A DNA stretch of 64,000 nt from a virus, in the IMG/VR virus record IMGVR_UViG_3300045988_162434, positions 1-64,000 of that record. The stretch is one strand, 5' to 3'. Below the pieces are notes generated by a model that was given only the letters and a program-made list of their open reading frames with translations, was not told where the DNA came from and did not search any database. The position numbers were made by a program, and so were the translations under genes. Below are positions 43,981 through 52,131 of this stretch, piece after piece. Position 1 is the first letter of the stretch, and each line of letters starts with the position of its first letter.

Positions 43981-44029
43981 AAATTGCACAAAATTCGGGA
44001 TGCACAAGGTTAAAAAATTTGTGCAATTT
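43981..44029. repeat. operator-like inverted repeat AAATTGCACAAA...TTTGTGCAATTT flanking a CACAAAATTCGGGA core
   Basis: 12-bp perfect arms separated by 24 bp, immediately upstream of the plus-strand promoter -35 at 44035. Confidence 0.6.
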
Positions 44030-44034
44030 TCCTA

Positions 44035-44064
44035 TTGACAAATGCCAGAGCTATGTGGTATAAT
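44035..44064 (+). promoter_or_regulatory. plus-strand sigma70 promoter TTGACA-N17-TGgTATAAT (cassette copy 2)
   Basis: TTGACA at 44035-40 and TATAAT at 44059-64. The transcript would start at AGTTCGG and enter hairpin 44069-44093. Confidence 0.6.
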
Positions 44065-44068
44065 AGTT

Positions 44069-44093
44069 CGGCGAGCCCTGAGCGTGCTCGCCG
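44069..44093. ncRNA. GC-rich hairpin between convergent promoters (CGGCGAGC-cctgagcgt-GCTCGCCG)
   Basis: Homologous to hairpins at 42675, 45436, 47883 and 49562. Stems differ by compensatory changes. Confidence 0.5.
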
Positions 44094-44097
44094 CGAC

Positions 44098-44126
44098 ATT
44101 ATAGCATACTTTCTATTGTTTGTCAA
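44098..44126 (-). promoter_or_regulatory. minus-strand sigma70 promoter TTGACA-N17-TATAAT, convergent with the plus promoter at 44035
   Basis: Reverse complement of plus-strand ATTATA at 44098-44103 and TGTCAA at 44121-44126. Confidence 0.6.
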
Positions 44127-44135
44127 GTGTTTTAG

Positions 44136-44162
44136 ATAAAAAAAATAGGCATTTCTGCCTAT
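44136..44162 (-). terminator. intrinsic terminator of gene 44159-44350
   Basis: Hairpin AATAGGC-atttc-TGCCTATT preceded on the plus strand by an A8 run, which is a T-run on the minus strand. Confidence 0.55.
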
Positions 44163-44350
44163 TCTATATAAAAACAGTTTTCCATATTTCGGTATATCTT
44201 ATTAAGAATATTTGGATATTCGATGCCTTCACCGAGATAATCTTCTTCTATGTCTAACCTCTTAACTATTTTTTCTAAAACAAGATTAGCTTTTGTGAGA
44301 GTATCAATTTCTTCATTTGTTAAAATAAGTTCTTTTTTTATTTTTGCCAT
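44159..44350 (-). CDS. hypothetical small protein
   Basis: 63-aa ORF. Confidence 0.25.
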   Translation of the reverse strand: MAKIKKELILTNEEIDTLTKANLVLEKIVKRLDIEEDYLGEGIEYPNILNKIYRNMENCFYIE

Positions 44351-44400
44351 AACCTTTTTACCTCTCTTTCACTTTCTATACCTATTATATCACCGCTGAC

Positions 44401-44859
44401 CTACTCTGTCAAGAGTAAATCAGCTAAAAAATCAATAATATTTTCTTCGGTCGGGTCGATGGTTTCTCCCAAGCTCCAACCCTTGCGAACCTTTGCGTTA
44501 TCATCAAATAAAATCTGATTGCCGCCATGCTTGCGTGTACAGTTTGCTTTTGTTGTGCCATACTTCACAAGGTGGATTTCATCAAAAGGGAAGTTGTATC
44601 TAGCAAGCCAATCTCTTTTTGCAGTTCTTACAACTTCGTCAAAATCCTTTGTAGAATCCTTAGACAACCAAGATGTAACAACGATTCTGTAACCAACACT
44701 TTTCAAACAACAGAGCAAAGAACCAAGCAGAGCCATATCCCAAAGTGGTTCAGCCATAATGTAAGGGCGCGGATTCTCGTTGTGTAAATCCTCAAGCCAG
44801 CCATCTACTCCGTAGAAATTTGCGATTGTTCCATCCATGTCAAATACTAATGTTTTCAT
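44401..44859 (-). CDS. HAD-superfamily hydrolase (5'-nucleotidase/phosphatase-like)
   Basis: 152 aa. Motif I FDMDGTI, motif II VTS, and an FDDN motif near the C-terminus. Confidence 0.65.
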   Translation of the reverse strand: MKTLVFDMDGTIANFYGVDGWLEDLHNENPRPYIMAEPLWDMALLGSLLCCLKSVGYRIVVTSWLSKDSTKDFDEVVRTAKRDWLARYNFPFDEIHLVKYGTTKANCTRKHGGNQILFDDNAKVRKGWSLGETIDPTEENIIDFLADLLLTE

Positions 44860-45114
44860 ATCTTTTTACCTCTTTCCTTATCTTTTCTTTATTATATCAT
44901 GTTTAATATTATTTGTCAAGTATTTTTTTATTTTATTACCATATTATAATATTAGAATTATCATAATCTATCTCAGGTTCATGGGCGTTATCTGCAGCAC
45001 CGCCGTCATAATAGACAGAAACTTCTGTATCTGATGGATACTGTTCTAATATTTCAATTAAATCTTCAACTGTCATAATTTTTACCTCTTTCCTTAATCT
45101 CTATATTGATTATA

Positions 45115-49460: not shown

Positions 49461-49507
49461 TTATCCACAAAGTTATCCACAATTTCGGGATAGTGAATTG
49501 TGGATAA
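49461..49507. repeat. three DnaA-box-like 9-mers (two direct TTATCCACA, one inverted TGTGGATAA) around an ATTTCGGGATAG core
   Basis: TTATCCACA at 49461-69 and 49473-81; TGTGGATAA at 49499-507. Immediately upstream of the plus promoter at 49526. Confidence 0.6.
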
Positions 49508-49525
49508 CTTTTTTGAAAATTAATC

Positions 49526-49555
49526 TTGACAAACCTGAGTCATGTGTGGTATAAT
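49526..49555 (+). promoter_or_regulatory. plus-strand promoter TTGACA-N18-TGgTATAAT (cassette copy 5)
   Basis: TTGACA at 49526-31 and TATAAT at 49550-55, followed by hairpin CGGACCGCG-gcgatggtg-CGCGGCCCG at 49562-49588. Confidence 0.6.
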
Positions 49556-49588
49556 ATTTCGGACCGCGGCGATGGTGCGCGGCCCGCC

Positions 49589-49617
49589 AGTATATCATAT
49601 TTCATTCAATTTGTCAA
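49589..49617 (-). promoter_or_regulatory. minus-strand promoter TTGACA-N17-TATACT, convergent with 49526
   Basis: Reverse complement of AGTATA at 49589-94 and TGTCAA at 49612-17. Confidence 0.55.
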
Positions 49618-49728
49618 GAGAAAAATGAAAAATTTTTTCTAGGGTATTTTCATCTCAAAATTTCATTATATCACAACCGCCGCGATATGTCAAGCTTTTG
49701 TTGTAAAAAATTAGGGGCTATATAGCCC

Positions 49729-49914
49729 CTAAGCTAAGTACTCAATATCATATGTAATCCCTGCCCAGTCAAATTCTGAATCTTTATTAGAAATTGCATT
49801 AAGCAAATCAACAAGCTCATCAGTTTCTAATCCTATTTCATTACACATATCAAGAAATTTATCGAGAACCTCATATTCTTTTTTTGGAACAGTAATCTTT
49901 CTTGCAACTTTCAT
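49729..49914 (-). CDS. hypothetical small protein
   Basis: 61-aa ORF. Confidence 0.25.
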   Translation of the reverse strand: MKVARKITVPKKEYEVLDKFLDMCNEIGLETDELVDLLNAISNKDSEFDWAGITYDIEYLA

Positions 49915-50363
49915 ACTCTTTACCCCCTTTCCTTTATTATGTATTTATTATACCATGCCTTGACTAATTTGTCAAGGCTTAATTCCAAAATTTTTCAAAA
50001 TTTCGTTGCGTTTTTTCTTGCGCTGGATTGCATCGCTGACACTTGCCGCAATCAATGGCGGTATAACAAACGCGCACCCGCATCCAAAAGCTATTATAAT
50101 TTCCATATACTACACCTACTCCCCAATAGCGTACCCCTCAATATTACGAAAGAAGAAACAAAGTGTATCTTTATTATTATTCTTCTTAAACAAAATATAG
50201 TCTTTTGTTATCTCAATATCAGTACATTTATAAAACCAATCAACACGTCCATTTTTAAAAATTCCTATTGTCATATTCTTTACCTCTTTCCTTAACTTTT
50301 CTTTATTATAGCATACTTTCTATTGTTTGTCAATAGTAGTTTTTTAATTCTTTTCTCATTCTT

Positions 50364-50816
50364 TCAGCATTTCGTTTTTTTCTCAATCGGTGTAAAATAA
50401 TATCTTCTAAAACCATCATTTTCTACATATTCAGATTCTTTTGTATAACCTTCAATCTGATAATCAGTCATAAGAAAACTGTTCATCATTAAACTAAAAT
50501 CACTTGCCCACTTCTTATAGCGATATGGGAGCTTAGCATAATAATATGAATAATGGGTTTCCCAAATATAACGATTATTTTCTTCATCATACTCAATTTC
50601 ATTGAGAATCATTCTATCAGCAATTTTCTTAGCTTTCTTTTCATTCCACTGTCTTTTGCTGTCAAAGAAGTCATAGATACATTTTACTCCAACAAGAGGA
50701 ATTCCCCACCATGTAACCATATATTTACCAATCTTAATTCTATACCAAATAATTCTCTTCAAAAGACTATTCTTTCTCTTGTTTCTCTTTTCGATTGCTT
50801 TTTCAAAATTTTCCAT
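50364..50816 (-). CDS. hypothetical protein with an N-terminal TM helix
   Basis: 150-aa ORF. Confidence 0.3.
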   Translation of the reverse strand: MENFEKAIEKRNKRKNSLLKRIIWYRIKIGKYMVTWWGIPLVGVKCIYDFFDSKRQWNEKKAKKIADRMILNEIEYDEENNRYIWETHYSYYYAKLPYRYKKWASDFSLMMNSFLMTDYQIEGYTKESEYVENDGFRRYYFTPIEKKTKC

Positions 50817-51136
50817 ATGTTTTTACCTCTTTCCTTTATATATCCTAGCCATTCTATTTGCAAAAGGTCATTCCTAGGTTCACCTTGCTTGGAATAGAAG
50901 AGAATCGAACTCTTGTTTCATATGCACCAGTATATCCCTTATTTCTATATTTATTATATCATATTTATTATTATTTGTCAACAACTATTTTTTAAATCCA
51001 TATGGAAGGCTTCGGCTCCTCAGTCAACCGACCACCTATTAGATAACCTGTCAACTGAGTGGTGAGCCTCTATCTCTTCCTATCTTTTGTTTGTACCTAT
51101 ATTGTATCATATGCTTTTGTTTTTGTCAACCCCTTT

Positions 51137-51568
51137 CTAAATTCTTTTGATATGAATATCATTATATTCTGTACTATCAGACATCGTAATCATACGGAGC
51201 AAACCCCAGCAAGTAAACTCATCATGTGTTCCAATAGCTTTAGCAATAAAATCAACGATATGCTTGATATTAGCCTGAACACTATCTCCAACAAGGAAGA
51301 AATCATCGCCATATGAGAACTCATGCGGATTGCTTGAAGTTTTTACAGTCTCGCCCATATCGAGATAGCCAGCGATCATCTCCATTGTTCCCCAGAAGTC
51401 AATCTCATTGCCATTACTATCCCAGTAGTCTGACTCATCGCTCTCCCAAAGTCCCTCGATAAAGTCGATATAACTATAAATATCAAAGCTCTCAATACTT
51501 GTTACTACAATCGTCTTACAACTATTTTCCAAAACCATAAACATAATTTTTACCTCTTTCCTTTTCAA
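51137..51568 (-). CDS. acidic hypothetical protein
   Basis: 143-aa ORF. Confidence 0.3.
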   Translation of the reverse strand: MKRKEVKIMFMVLENSCKTIVVTSIESFDIYSYIDFIEGLWESDESDYWDSNGNEIDFWGTMEMIAGYLDMGETVKTSSNPHEFSYGDDFFLVGDSVQANIKHIVDFIAKAIGTHDEFTCWGLLRMITMSDSTEYNDIHIKRI

Positions 51569-52087
51569 ACAATCAAATTTTTAAACCCTATGGAGAGTGC
51601 CTACTTGACACTCTCAACGGTGAATCCAGCTTTCTCAATCTCACGAATCTTCGCAAGTGTGTAGCAATCCTTGTCAACAACAACTCCGCCAATCTTAACA
51701 ACAACCATTTTCATAATTTTTTACCTCTTTCCTTTTCTTTATTATGTATTTATTATATCATACCTTGTGGGGTTTGTCAACCCCCTTTTTACTACTTTTT
51801 TGTTTTCTTCTCAAGCCAAGCCTGGAACTCAATCTCACTACCGCAGAAGTGACGAACCGCGCCGCCCTCGAAACCAACAATATAATTGCAACCATGTCTT
51901 TCAATCTTAACTACCTTCATACTCAACTACCTCTTTCCTTAATTTCTGTACTTATTATAGCACATCTTATTGAGTTTGTCAATACCTTTTTTGTAAGTTT
52001 CTGTTTTCAGCTATCGTGCTGTTTCTGTTCCTTACAAGTATTATAATACTACTTTAGGCAACAAAAGTCAATAGTTTTTTATAAAAA

Positions 52088-52131
52088 AATTGCACAATTT
52101 TGGGATTGAAAAAACTTATAAATTTGTGCAA
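52088..52131. repeat. operator-like inverted repeat ATTGCACAA...TTTGTGCAA around a CACAATTTTGGGATTG core
   Basis: Upstream of the plus promoter at 52140. Confidence 0.55.

Follow-up and report, generated by a model that had tools for sequence, protein, structure and literature searches.

The DNA analysed here, referred to as the window, is the whole 64,000-nucleotide stretch at positions 1 to 64,000 of the IMG/VR virus record IMGVR_UViG_3300045988_162434. It is a portion of a large phage genome, has a G+C content of ~33%, and carries ~20 tRNA genes and one ROOL RNA. A plus-strand block starting at 56.3 kb includes a sigma-like gene, the terminase and the portal, and by portal protein the closest named phages are phAss-1 (40% identity) and Enterococcus phages (32%). 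Between 41.5 and 54 kb lies an early region of very small orphan genes on the minus strand, served by ~30 perfect TTGACA-17-TATAAT promoters on that strand. Several plus-strand promoters within this region are preceded by a palindromic sequence, and we propose that such a palindrome forms the central part of a conserved control cassette of the early region, in which short boxes are phased to back-to-back promoters, a reading that we put at roughly 60%.

The plus promoters conform to TTGACAAA-N11-TGTGGTATAAT with an 18-bp spacer, exactly at 44035, 47849, 49526 and 52140 and with two mismatches at 52791, giving five matches in the window where shuffles predict 0.03. The palindrome arms are TTGCACAA at 43984, 47799 and 52090, and TTGTGCAA at 44019, 47823 and 52124. 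A shared core, CACAA(N0-2)TT(C/T)GGGA, is present in all four cassettes at 43987, 47802, 49477 and 52093, the last being TTTTGGGA at a position where close relatives have TTTCGGGA. An earlier note on this DNA had described these promoters, palindromes and core together with a copy built from DnaA-type 9-mers, and all of them are found at the positions it gave, although the form of the core with TTCGGGA holds at 43987, 47802 and 49477 and not at 52093. It had also proposed that the plus transcripts begin with TTCGG, and this remains the predicted start, as TTCGG follows every plus -10.

In plus-strand order, a full cassette comprises a divergent minus-strand promoter, a left box, TTCGGGAT, a spacer, a right box, the plus promoter, a GC-rich hairpin starting 4-8 nt after the -10, and finally one of two endings, a minus-strand promoter oriented toward the plus promoter or, with no such promoter in between, the hairpin that terminates the upstream minus-strand gene. 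The divergent promoters past the left arm and the face-to-face promoters past the hairpin go beyond the earlier description, as do a sixth plus unit at 45400-45428 and a relic at 42599-42732. The features are as follows, with "sense" meaning the direction of the early genes.

43297-43695, minus strand: candidate box-binding winged-helix protein, 132 amino acids, with paralogues at 45853-46224 and 31472-31894
43945-43973, minus strand: cassette 1 divergent sense promoter, TTGATT-17-TATAAT with TG, one of four in tandem upstream of 43297-43695
43980-43995, no strand: cassette 1 left box, core TTGCACAA at 43984-43991, ending (in minus-strand reading) ~10 bp before the minus -35 (offset 13, against family modes of 11 and 21)
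43994-44001, no strand: cassette 1 TTCGGGAT element, ~40 bp before the plus -35
44015-44030, no strand: cassette 1 right box AAATTTGTGCAATTTT, core end 8 bp before the plus -35
44035-44064, plus strand: cassette 1 antisense promoter, TTGACA-18-TATAAT, extended -10
44069-44093, no strand: cassette 1 GC-rich hairpin CGGCGAGC / GCTCGCCG, at the plus-RNA start and common to the facing minus promoter
44098-44126, minus strand: cassette 1 face-to-face sense promoter, 12/12, inferred starts ~21 bp apart
44142-44165, minus strand: terminator of gene 44159-44350, U tract on the minus strand only, likely (predicted) plus-RNA 3' end
47795-47814, no strand: cassette 2 left box (TTGCACAA, 47799-47806) and TTCGGGAG (47807-47814)
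47819-47834, no strand: cassette 2 right box, TTGTGCAA at 47823-47830, end 18 bp before the plus -35
47849-47878, plus strand: cassette 2 antisense promoter, TTGACAAA-N11-TGTGGTATAAT match
47883-47909, no strand: cassette 2 GC hairpin CGGCGCGC / GCGCGCCG
47912-47940, minus strand: cassette 2 face-to-face sense promoter, 12/12
47953-47983, no strand: cassette 2 terminator hairpin with an A run on one side and a T run on the other, hence bidirectional; predicted plus RNA ~100 nt
49426-49454, minus strand: cassette 3 divergent sense promoter, 12/12, driving the 47-amino-acid open reading frame (ORF) 49248-49391
49461-49507, no strand: cassette 3 DnaA boxes in the box positions, 49461-49469 (+), 49473-49481 (+) and 49499-49507 (-)
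49484-49491, no strand: cassette 3 TTCGGGAT
49526-49555, plus strand: cassette 3 antisense promoter, TTGACAAA-N11-TGTGGTATAAT match
49560-49586, no strand: cassette 3 GC hairpin, one internal mismatch
49589-49617, minus strand: cassette 3 face-to-face sense promoter, 11/12
49665-49693 and 49711-49732, beyond cassette 3: second sense promoter and terminator, respectively
52043-52071, minus strand: cassette 4 divergent sense promoter, TTGACT-17-TATTAT, 10/12
52086-52106, no strand: cassette 4 left box (TTGCACAA, 52090-52097) and TTTGGGAT (52099-52106), the latter at a position where close relatives have TTCGGGAT
52120-52135, no strand: cassette 4 right box AAATTTGTGCAAATTT, core end 8 bp before the -35
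52140-52169, plus strand: cassette 4 antisense promoter, predicted RNA ~115 nt (52176-52290) with another fold and no GC hairpin
52791-52820, plus strand: cassette 5 antisense promoter, no recognisable boxes, predicted RNA ~60 nt ending at hairpin 52863-52888
45359-45494, no strand: cassette 6, box-less, TTTTGGGAT at 45359-45367 and plus promoter at 45400-45428 (TATACT), with GC hairpin 45436-45462, facing sense promoter 45466-45494 and divergent promoter 45327-45355
42598-42732, no strand: relic cassette, TTTCGGGAT at 42598-42606, GC hairpin 42675-42699 and sense promoter 42704-42732, the plus promoter being lost

We note that the four tandem near-consensus minus promoters upstream of 43297-43695 (44126, 43973, 43864 and 43773) span an interval, 43745-44126, with no ORF of at least 60 amino acids, and that two of the units resemble duplicates.

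The cassette is present in at least dozens of 130-200 kb IMG/VR and ENA contigs of gut and rumen phages. An exact-pattern scan of IMG/VR was used, and the figures come from the matches listed, which also contain chance hits in coding DNA. In many 130-200 kb contigs among these matches, the queried pattern is followed by parts outside the query, namely the right arm, a consensus promoter, TTCGG and a GC hairpin. The collection assembled from the matches listed has 55 distinct cassette copies, from the window and 35 other loci; the latter encode homologues of the window's early proteins at 30-70% identity, and also the sigma-like protein, terminase and portal. Further copies were reached by protein search in ENA and JGI contigs. 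A megablast search of GenBank phage records with 43500-52500 gives no matches, the cassette was not found in the first 50 kb of phAss-1, and the paper describing phAss-1 does not mention promoters or repeats; limited literature searches by motif and by topic found no description of such a cassette.

Simple counts of the motif are not in themselves impressive, with 8 occurrences of the 8-mers in the window against 3.7 +/- 2.0 expected, and the 16-mer core pattern with mismatches is not significant. What lies far beyond chance is that the arms are paired, occupy fixed places beside the five plus promoters, and recur in relatives. From the left CACAA to the plus -35 there are 47-48 bp in all but one of the 55 copies (54), in a search that allowed a 20-bp range, and the right box, recognised with at least a 7/8 match in 44 copies, ends 8 bp before the -35 in 28 of them and 18-19 bp before it in 16, two positions that are one helical turn apart. 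In the window the corresponding distances for cassettes 1-4 are 8, 18, 18 and 8 bp, the value for cassette 3 being counted from one base past the end of the DnaA 9-mer. As for the left box, the divergent minus -35 lies 8 or 18 bp beyond it. Family DNA totalling 351 kb contains 313 copies of the 7-mer TTGTGCA, compared with ~43 by a rough estimate that assumes equal base frequencies, and when all copies are counted the distance to the next TTGAC peaks at 8-9 bp (86), 18-19 bp (54) and 28-29 bp (8); in reverse orientation it is nearly never found at these distances. Among 640 distinct strong promoters, 162 carry a box with at least a 7/8 match, and in 150 of those it is 8-9 or 18-19 bp away.

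A position weight matrix built from the 162 boxes gives a 16-bp dyad, AAaTTTG-TG-CAAtTT, with a GTGC core conserved at 93-100%. The ideal box is AAATTTG-TG-CAAATTT, with two 7-bp half-sites around a central TG that is asymmetric and invariant, and variants in the family include TTTGTGCA and TTTGTTCA. The orientation of a box relative to the promoter that it serves does not vary, the right arm serving the plus promoter and the left arm the divergent minus promoter, and it is because these two promoter-associated boxes point away from each other that an inverted repeat is seen. The earlier note's single long palindromic operator around a conserved centre thus gives way to two arms, each a 16-bp dyad serving its own promoter. 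The TTCGGGAT in the centre is a separate element at a fixed distance of ~40 bp from the plus -35, with 64 of 79 similar 8-mers upstream of promoters located 40-42 bp from the -35. In a comparison by eye with consensus sequences, neither the box nor TTCGGGAT fits the sites of sigma-54, sporulation sigma factors, Spo0A (0A box), CodY, ComK, NrdR, Rex, CRP/FNR or IHF.

Orientation is equally constant, the plus promoter being antisense to the early genes in every locus with placeable early-gene homologues, and in the nine loci that carry both, the cassette shares its direction with the sigma-like, terminase and portal genes, with zero exceptions. This bears on the possibility that the cassettes are a selfish or duplicating repeat, similar to a miniature inverted-repeat element, which carries promoters and has no regulatory role. 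Several copies per genome, a palindromic layout and decayed copies at 45360 and 42599 are all features of such repeats, but the orientation relative to early genes does not vary in any locus examined, copies persist at syntenic positions where the genomes share 57-83% protein identity, the spacing obeys strict helical rules, and close relatives (88-97% identity) differ less within the cassettes than in the adjoining coding sequence. We consider a selfish repeat very improbable.

Next to the promoter, the boxes fall at about -44 to -61 with A/T-rich flanks, the zone occupied by UP elements, and one may ask if they are simply promoter-strength elements read by the host, through a contact with the RNA polymerase alpha subunit, or sites for a host global regulator. 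The 10-bp phasing fits an RNA polymerase contact, and by our own comparison the box agrees at 7/9 positions with a relaxed DnaA consensus, TGTGNAWAA. A GTGC core at 93-100% is not a feature of UP elements, however, and most consensus promoters in the window are without boxes. Moreover, a scan of 185,579 species genomes with the 19-mer ATTGCACAAATTTCGGGAT reveals no host regulon at that stringency, only isolated single hits and one contig of a rumen metagenome-assembled genome with two copies, which is probably the phage itself. A host-read element is therefore doubtful as an explanation of the boxes.

The arms could also act as RNA, pairing within sense transcripts initiated at the facing promoter to form a terminator, attenuator or processing site between the distal and proximal promoters. 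Minus-strand folds of the four palindromes have energies of -9 to -21 kcal/mol (z -2.3 to -6.5) and are followed by U-rich sequence, and in the DnaA copy both arms have changed together, as a hairpin would also require. On the other hand, the arms are conserved in sequence beyond mere complementarity, whereas the true hairpin of the cassette covaries freely. The loops would be 15-26 nt long on stems with three G-C pairs, unlike the 3-8-nt loop and G+C-rich stem with U tract of an intrinsic terminator, and a terminator scan calls none of them. Distances between box and -35 are quantised, at 8, 18 and 28 bp, and the orientation is fixed, single unpaired boxes occur upstream of sense promoters, and each arm is itself a dyad. 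We regard a role of the palindromes in RNA as quite unlikely.

Arm sequences are conserved among phages with proteins merely 40-70% identical, and lone boxes lie upstream of sense promoters in the relatives. Quantised and orientation-locked spacing, sequence conservation, the dyad, the lone boxes and the existence of box-free promoters together argue for a sequence-specific, probably dimeric protein that binds double-stranded DNA; a hairpin in RNA would account for none of the five. The earlier note's suggestion of regulator-binding sites is thus probably correct insofar as the conserved arms and the 10-bp-quantised spacing indicate DNA sites for a sequence-specific protein tied to the plus promoters.

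A plausible scenario for the control cassette is that a dimeric, family-specific protein would occupy each box and contact RNA polymerase at the neighbouring promoter, working from a single face of the DNA. The phased upstream positions are more like the geometry of an activator than that of a repressor acting at the core promoter, and the effect could be in either direction. The promoters appear to be of the host type (sigma-A) and are arranged back-to-back; the minus promoter would drive early genes, and the plus promoter would give rise to a short non-coding RNA with a 5' GC-rich stem-loop, directed toward the terminator of the upstream early gene. At cassettes with a sense promoter facing the plus promoter, the box-bound protein, through its effect on the antisense promoter, would also gate distal sense read-in to the next early gene.

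Candidates for this protein are the small winged-helix paralogues. The one at 43297-43695 is the first gene downstream of cassette 1, and its homologues at three other loci (L248, L250 and L251) also have an upstream cassette; the copy at 31472-31894 is a more distant paralogue with 30% identity in alignment, and homologues occur throughout the phage family. In a confident AlphaFold model (predicted local distance difference test score, pLDDT, of 86) the N-terminal part is helical and is followed by a basic linker and then, at the C terminus, by a winged helix that superposes on AspA, MecI, MarR and ArsR-type domains at 2.2-2.6 A over 65-72 residues, with weak E values of 0.04-0.3. Sequence searches of ~35 early proteins in Pfam, PHROGs and PDB identified no DNA-binding family, the sole hint being a weak HTH_32 match in 45853-46224, and Pfam domains were not found in these ~35 proteins; the two proteins put forward in the earlier note, 39256-39423 and 39616-39903, likewise gave no Pfam match. 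Two other products, 44401-44859 (HAD-like, 5'-3' deoxyribonucleotidase-like) and 46773-47519 (function unassigned), are the two best-conserved early proteins and were considered as box binders, for which there is no support.

Cassette 3 differs in that its box positions contain the exact sequence TTATCCACA at 49461 (+), 49473 (+) and 49499 (-), all within 47 bp, and just one further exact copy is present in the 64 kb. DnaA-like 9-mers with at most one mismatch are not enriched across the window (24 versus 21 expected). The extra DnaA box is 6 bp from the minus -35, near the 8-bp slot, compared with ~18 bp for the standard left box, and the A/T-rich flank, TTTTTTGAAAA(A)TTA, is the same as in cassette 2, which has no DnaA boxes. 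DnaA boxes were not found in the cassettes of other relatives (287 kb). In the scan of viral contigs, only L207, ~90% identical to the window, has the DnaA variant among the matches listed, and all 27 box positions are identical to those of the window. A syntenic ENA contig met by chance (L250) has 57-83% protein identity and ~75% nucleotide identity in this region, and carries an orthologous cassette upstream of its homologue of the 47-amino-acid ORF. There the spacer and hairpin have changed and the first two boxes are 21 rather than 12 bp apart, but all three 9-mers are intact; by our own estimate, the chance of 27 unchanged positions is ~0.75^27, or ~4e-4.

The earlier note offered host DnaA as one possible reader of the palindromes, and this is plausible at 49461-49507 only. 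The common box, with consensus AATTGCACA, agrees with TTWTNCACA at 7/9 positions and fails at positions 1-2, and it has a dyad where the DnaA box has none. The conservation of the intact copy at 49461-49507 suggests that host DnaA binds there. As this variant lacks the dyad, a different binder, most simply host DnaA, seems more likely than a paralogue with shifted specificity. In the lineage of the window one cassette has swapped its boxes for the DnaA consensus, a change that most likely brings these two promoters under the control of host DnaA.

That clustered DnaA boxes of consensus sequence are conserved at an orthologous site also raises the question of whether the cassettes are replication origins or priming sites, with the boxes acting like iterons for a winged-helix initiator or, in one copy, for DnaA, and the strong promoters activating replication by transcription or, through the GC-rich initial transcript, supplying an R-loop primer. 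The fold of the candidate binder, a winged helix, is shared with plasmid Rep proteins, and 25-30 bp at the transcript start are GC-rich in a genome of 33% GC. There are precedents for transcription at origins in the phage c2 ori transcript, T4 oriF/oriG and the stimulation of lambda pR by DnaA. Nonetheless, about a quarter of the strong promoters in the family carry a box, at least six cassettes are found within 10 kb, well above the number that origins would call for, the phasing of the boxes follows the -35 elements and not one another, and the sequence of the hairpin varies freely. The DnaA boxes, furthermore, are confined to the window's own sub-lineage among the matches listed. The large ORFs scanned upstream gave no match to replication proteins. 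That the cassettes are origins is thus unlikely.

Downstream of the plus promoter, a GC-rich stem-loop is the minimum-free-energy fold of the 52 nt after the -10 in the same place in most of the 55 copies (mean z -2.4), which were chosen irrespective of the hairpin. The 5' arms are 82% G+C with 39% pairwise identity, and there are 26 distinct arms among 30 clean stems, with compensatory changes as in GGCGCGCC/GGCGCGCC, GGTGCGCC/GGCGCACC and GGCTCGAC/GTCGAGCC. Because the structure is kept while the sequence varies, selection must act on this element in single-stranded form, in the simplest case as the 5' end of the RNA. In the relatives the stem begins 8 nt after the plus -10 and only 2-4 nt after the facing -10, so that the complete hairpin belongs to the antisense RNA. 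A second -10-like element, GGAAAT, which was considered as a pause site, follows the -10 in relatives and is absent from the copies in the window. The loop types GCGACCCATG, TGAAAGGAG and AAGGAACGT recur on the covarying stems, which suggests that something recognises the loops. We note that the loop TGAAAGGAG resembles a Shine-Dalgarno or STAB-SD sequence, and that loops of the recurrent types are located at 45445-45453 in the window, near 8151 in L044, 6987 in L109 and 5924 in L251, and in others. No Rfam match at the gathering threshold was found for the plus-strand RNAs, with only chance-level matches at E up to 5 (43800-53000).

Hairpins lie 60-170 nt downstream of the plus promoters, but a plus-strand U tract is present only at 47953-47983, the others being called as minus-strand terminators; the lengths of the RNAs are uncertain because most of these hairpins are without one. 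The facing promoter pairs, 44035/44126, 45400/45494, 47849/47940 and 49526/49617, score 12/12 or 11/12 by sequence only. In cassettes 1, 2, 3 and 6 the facing -10 hexamers are 33-37 bp apart, which corresponds to start sites ~21-25 bp apart if transcription is assumed to begin 7 nt after each -10. At this distance the two facing promoters could not both hold RNA polymerase, and their RNAs would be complementary at their 5' ends.

Beyond gene control, the cassettes might form a distributed early-infection device in which abundant 5'-hairpin-capped non-coding RNAs, or the act of making them, have a role in their own right and the boxes set the timing. Such a role could be replication priming or activation at the DnaA-coupled site, titration of a host RNase or RNA sensor, or sensing of the state of host RNA polymerase, much as helD does with rifampicin. 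These options are speculative and we hold little expectation of any of them.

Several points weigh against the control cassette as we interpret it. While sequences, geometry, conservation, orientation and hairpin covariation are observed directly, protein binding and transcripts are predicted from the DNA alone. The retrieval patterns forced parts of the left arm and TTYGGGA, and conservation there is partly built in, while the right box, promoters, hairpin and spacings were left free; the copy counts are moreover not independent, since related phages share ancestry. Left of the left box in cassette 2 there is no convincing divergent promoter, cassettes 5 and 6 are without boxes, functional or not, and the plus-RNA 5' parts of cassettes 4 and 5 resemble each other and have no GC hairpin. 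With most downstream hairpins lacking a plus-strand U tract, the plus RNAs may run on into the upstream gene. As for the protein, the early proteins belong to no Pfam family, the winged-helix genes are not always beside a cassette, and cassettes are so dense that the adjacency may be due to chance.

Among other features, a near-palindromic repeat of 20 nt, GCTTTAACGCRCTAAAGYGT, is found at 52234-52253, 53570-53589 and 54019-54038 (four overlapping matches against zero expected), and its first copy falls within the predicted plus RNA of cassette 4. A perfect plus promoter with a 17-bp spacer is located at 54077-54150 (+), where the early region ends, its transcript holding TTTCGGGGTCAAATTTGAC, and at locus L113 TATAAT-TTTTCGGGGTCAAATTGAC stands immediately after a promoter; TTTCGGGGTCAAATTTGAC and TTTTCGGGGTCAAATTGAC may be a conserved leader for the rightward genes. 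The sigma-like protein (56373-57458, plus strand) matches the PHROG sigma factor family with E = 4e-46, and its C-terminal ~45 amino acids also match endonuclease VII, HNH and Lar-like zinc-ribbon families.

The ROOL RNA is full-length (24785-25385, minus strand, 275 bits) and is situated between tRNA clusters. The tRNA array includes a suppressor-type tRNA at 23226-23296 (-) with anticodon TTA, reading UAA, and TAG is recoded in the phAss-1 group of distant relatives (PMC10607447). Inside the early region, an Rfam tRNA match spans 137 nt at 45650-45786 (-), with 45.1 bits over model positions 1-71 and no ARAGORN call; it adjoins a tRNA-Trp (45568-45640) and may contain an intron or insert. 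A Thg1-like tRNA-His guanylyltransferase is encoded at 54655-55545 (-; PHROG E = 2e-82), and a 486-amino-acid protein at 5133-6593 (-) belongs to a PHROG 'RNA-binding protein' family (E = 6e-121). These two genes, taken with the tRNAs and ROOL, point to a heavy investment in RNA biology.

Almost nothing is known of how early genes are scheduled in large uncultivated gut and rumen phages. The cassette amounts to a family-wide regulatory grammar, consisting of a box at 8, 18 or 28 bp, TTCGGGAT, an antisense hairpin RNA and facing promoters, and this grammar is searchable in metagenomes and testable on synthetic templates without culturing the phage. The DnaA swap, if true, would be a natural example of a phage promoter rewired from the phage's own regulator to a host replication protein, and the antisense units, if functional, would extend the small set of known convergent-promoter switches by one that is repeated and coupled to operators.

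Known systems share individual parts of this arrangement. An experimental precedent is helD/pps of B. subtilis, where a stronger antisense promoter with a long spacer and an extended -10 faces and represses the sense promoter, and the ~90-nt antisense RNA stops at hairpins, one of them doubling as the terminator of the upstream gene for transcription arriving from the opposite side (PMC12802891). There the start sites are separated by 39 bp and polymerase is believed to occupy both; removal of 17 bp abolished regulation, and steric interference was predicted at the shortened distance (PMC12802891). The window resembles helD in its near-consensus antisense promoter, long spacer, extended -10 and facing sense promoter, but its starts, ~21-25 bp apart, are in the range for which the helD authors predicted steric exclusion. 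helD also has neither upstream operator boxes nor a 5' GC hairpin, and is a host antibiotic sensor rather than a phage early cassette.

Face-to-face promoters with 5'-overlapping transcripts are also found at IS10 pIN/pOUT with RNA-OUT, coliphage 186 pR/pL and P22 Pant/Psar, where RNA-OUT and sar are short stable stem-loop antisense RNAs and the outcomes are interference and antisense pairing. Those are single loci controlling one gene or decision, whereas the unit in the window is repeated many times in the early region, is coupled to phased boxes and a divergent third promoter, and has the target ribosome-binding site ~200 nt from the overlap. The dyad operators of MarR, MecI/BlaI and ArsR are similar to the box in having a 16-bp dyad with 7-bp half-sites, and the candidate fold superposes on these proteins; the box departs from them in its asymmetric invariant TG, fixed orientation and phasing upstream of the -35, and a sequence family match between the candidate protein and these dimeric-regulator families was not found.

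DnaA-box clusters act in transcription control or origin activation, for example at lambda pR, and cassette 3 is like them in having three exact TTATCCACA in 47 bp, in both orientations, beside promoters. It differs in being one cassette of one sub-lineage, among the matches listed, in which the boxes replace other boxes at phased positions. In phi29, p4 is a small dimer that bends DNA and switches promoters by binding inverted repeats ~15 bp apart between the divergent early (A2c/A2b) and late (A3) promoters; the sequences and the protein are unrelated to those described here, there is one such region per genome, and a unit for an antisense hairpin RNA is absent from it. The ingredients of the cassette, namely dyad operators, promoters in divergent and in face-to-face pairs, and short antisense hairpin RNAs, are all of known kinds, and what appears to be new is their fixed combination, its repetition many times in each genome across an uncultivated phage family, and the conserved DnaA swap at one orthologous position.

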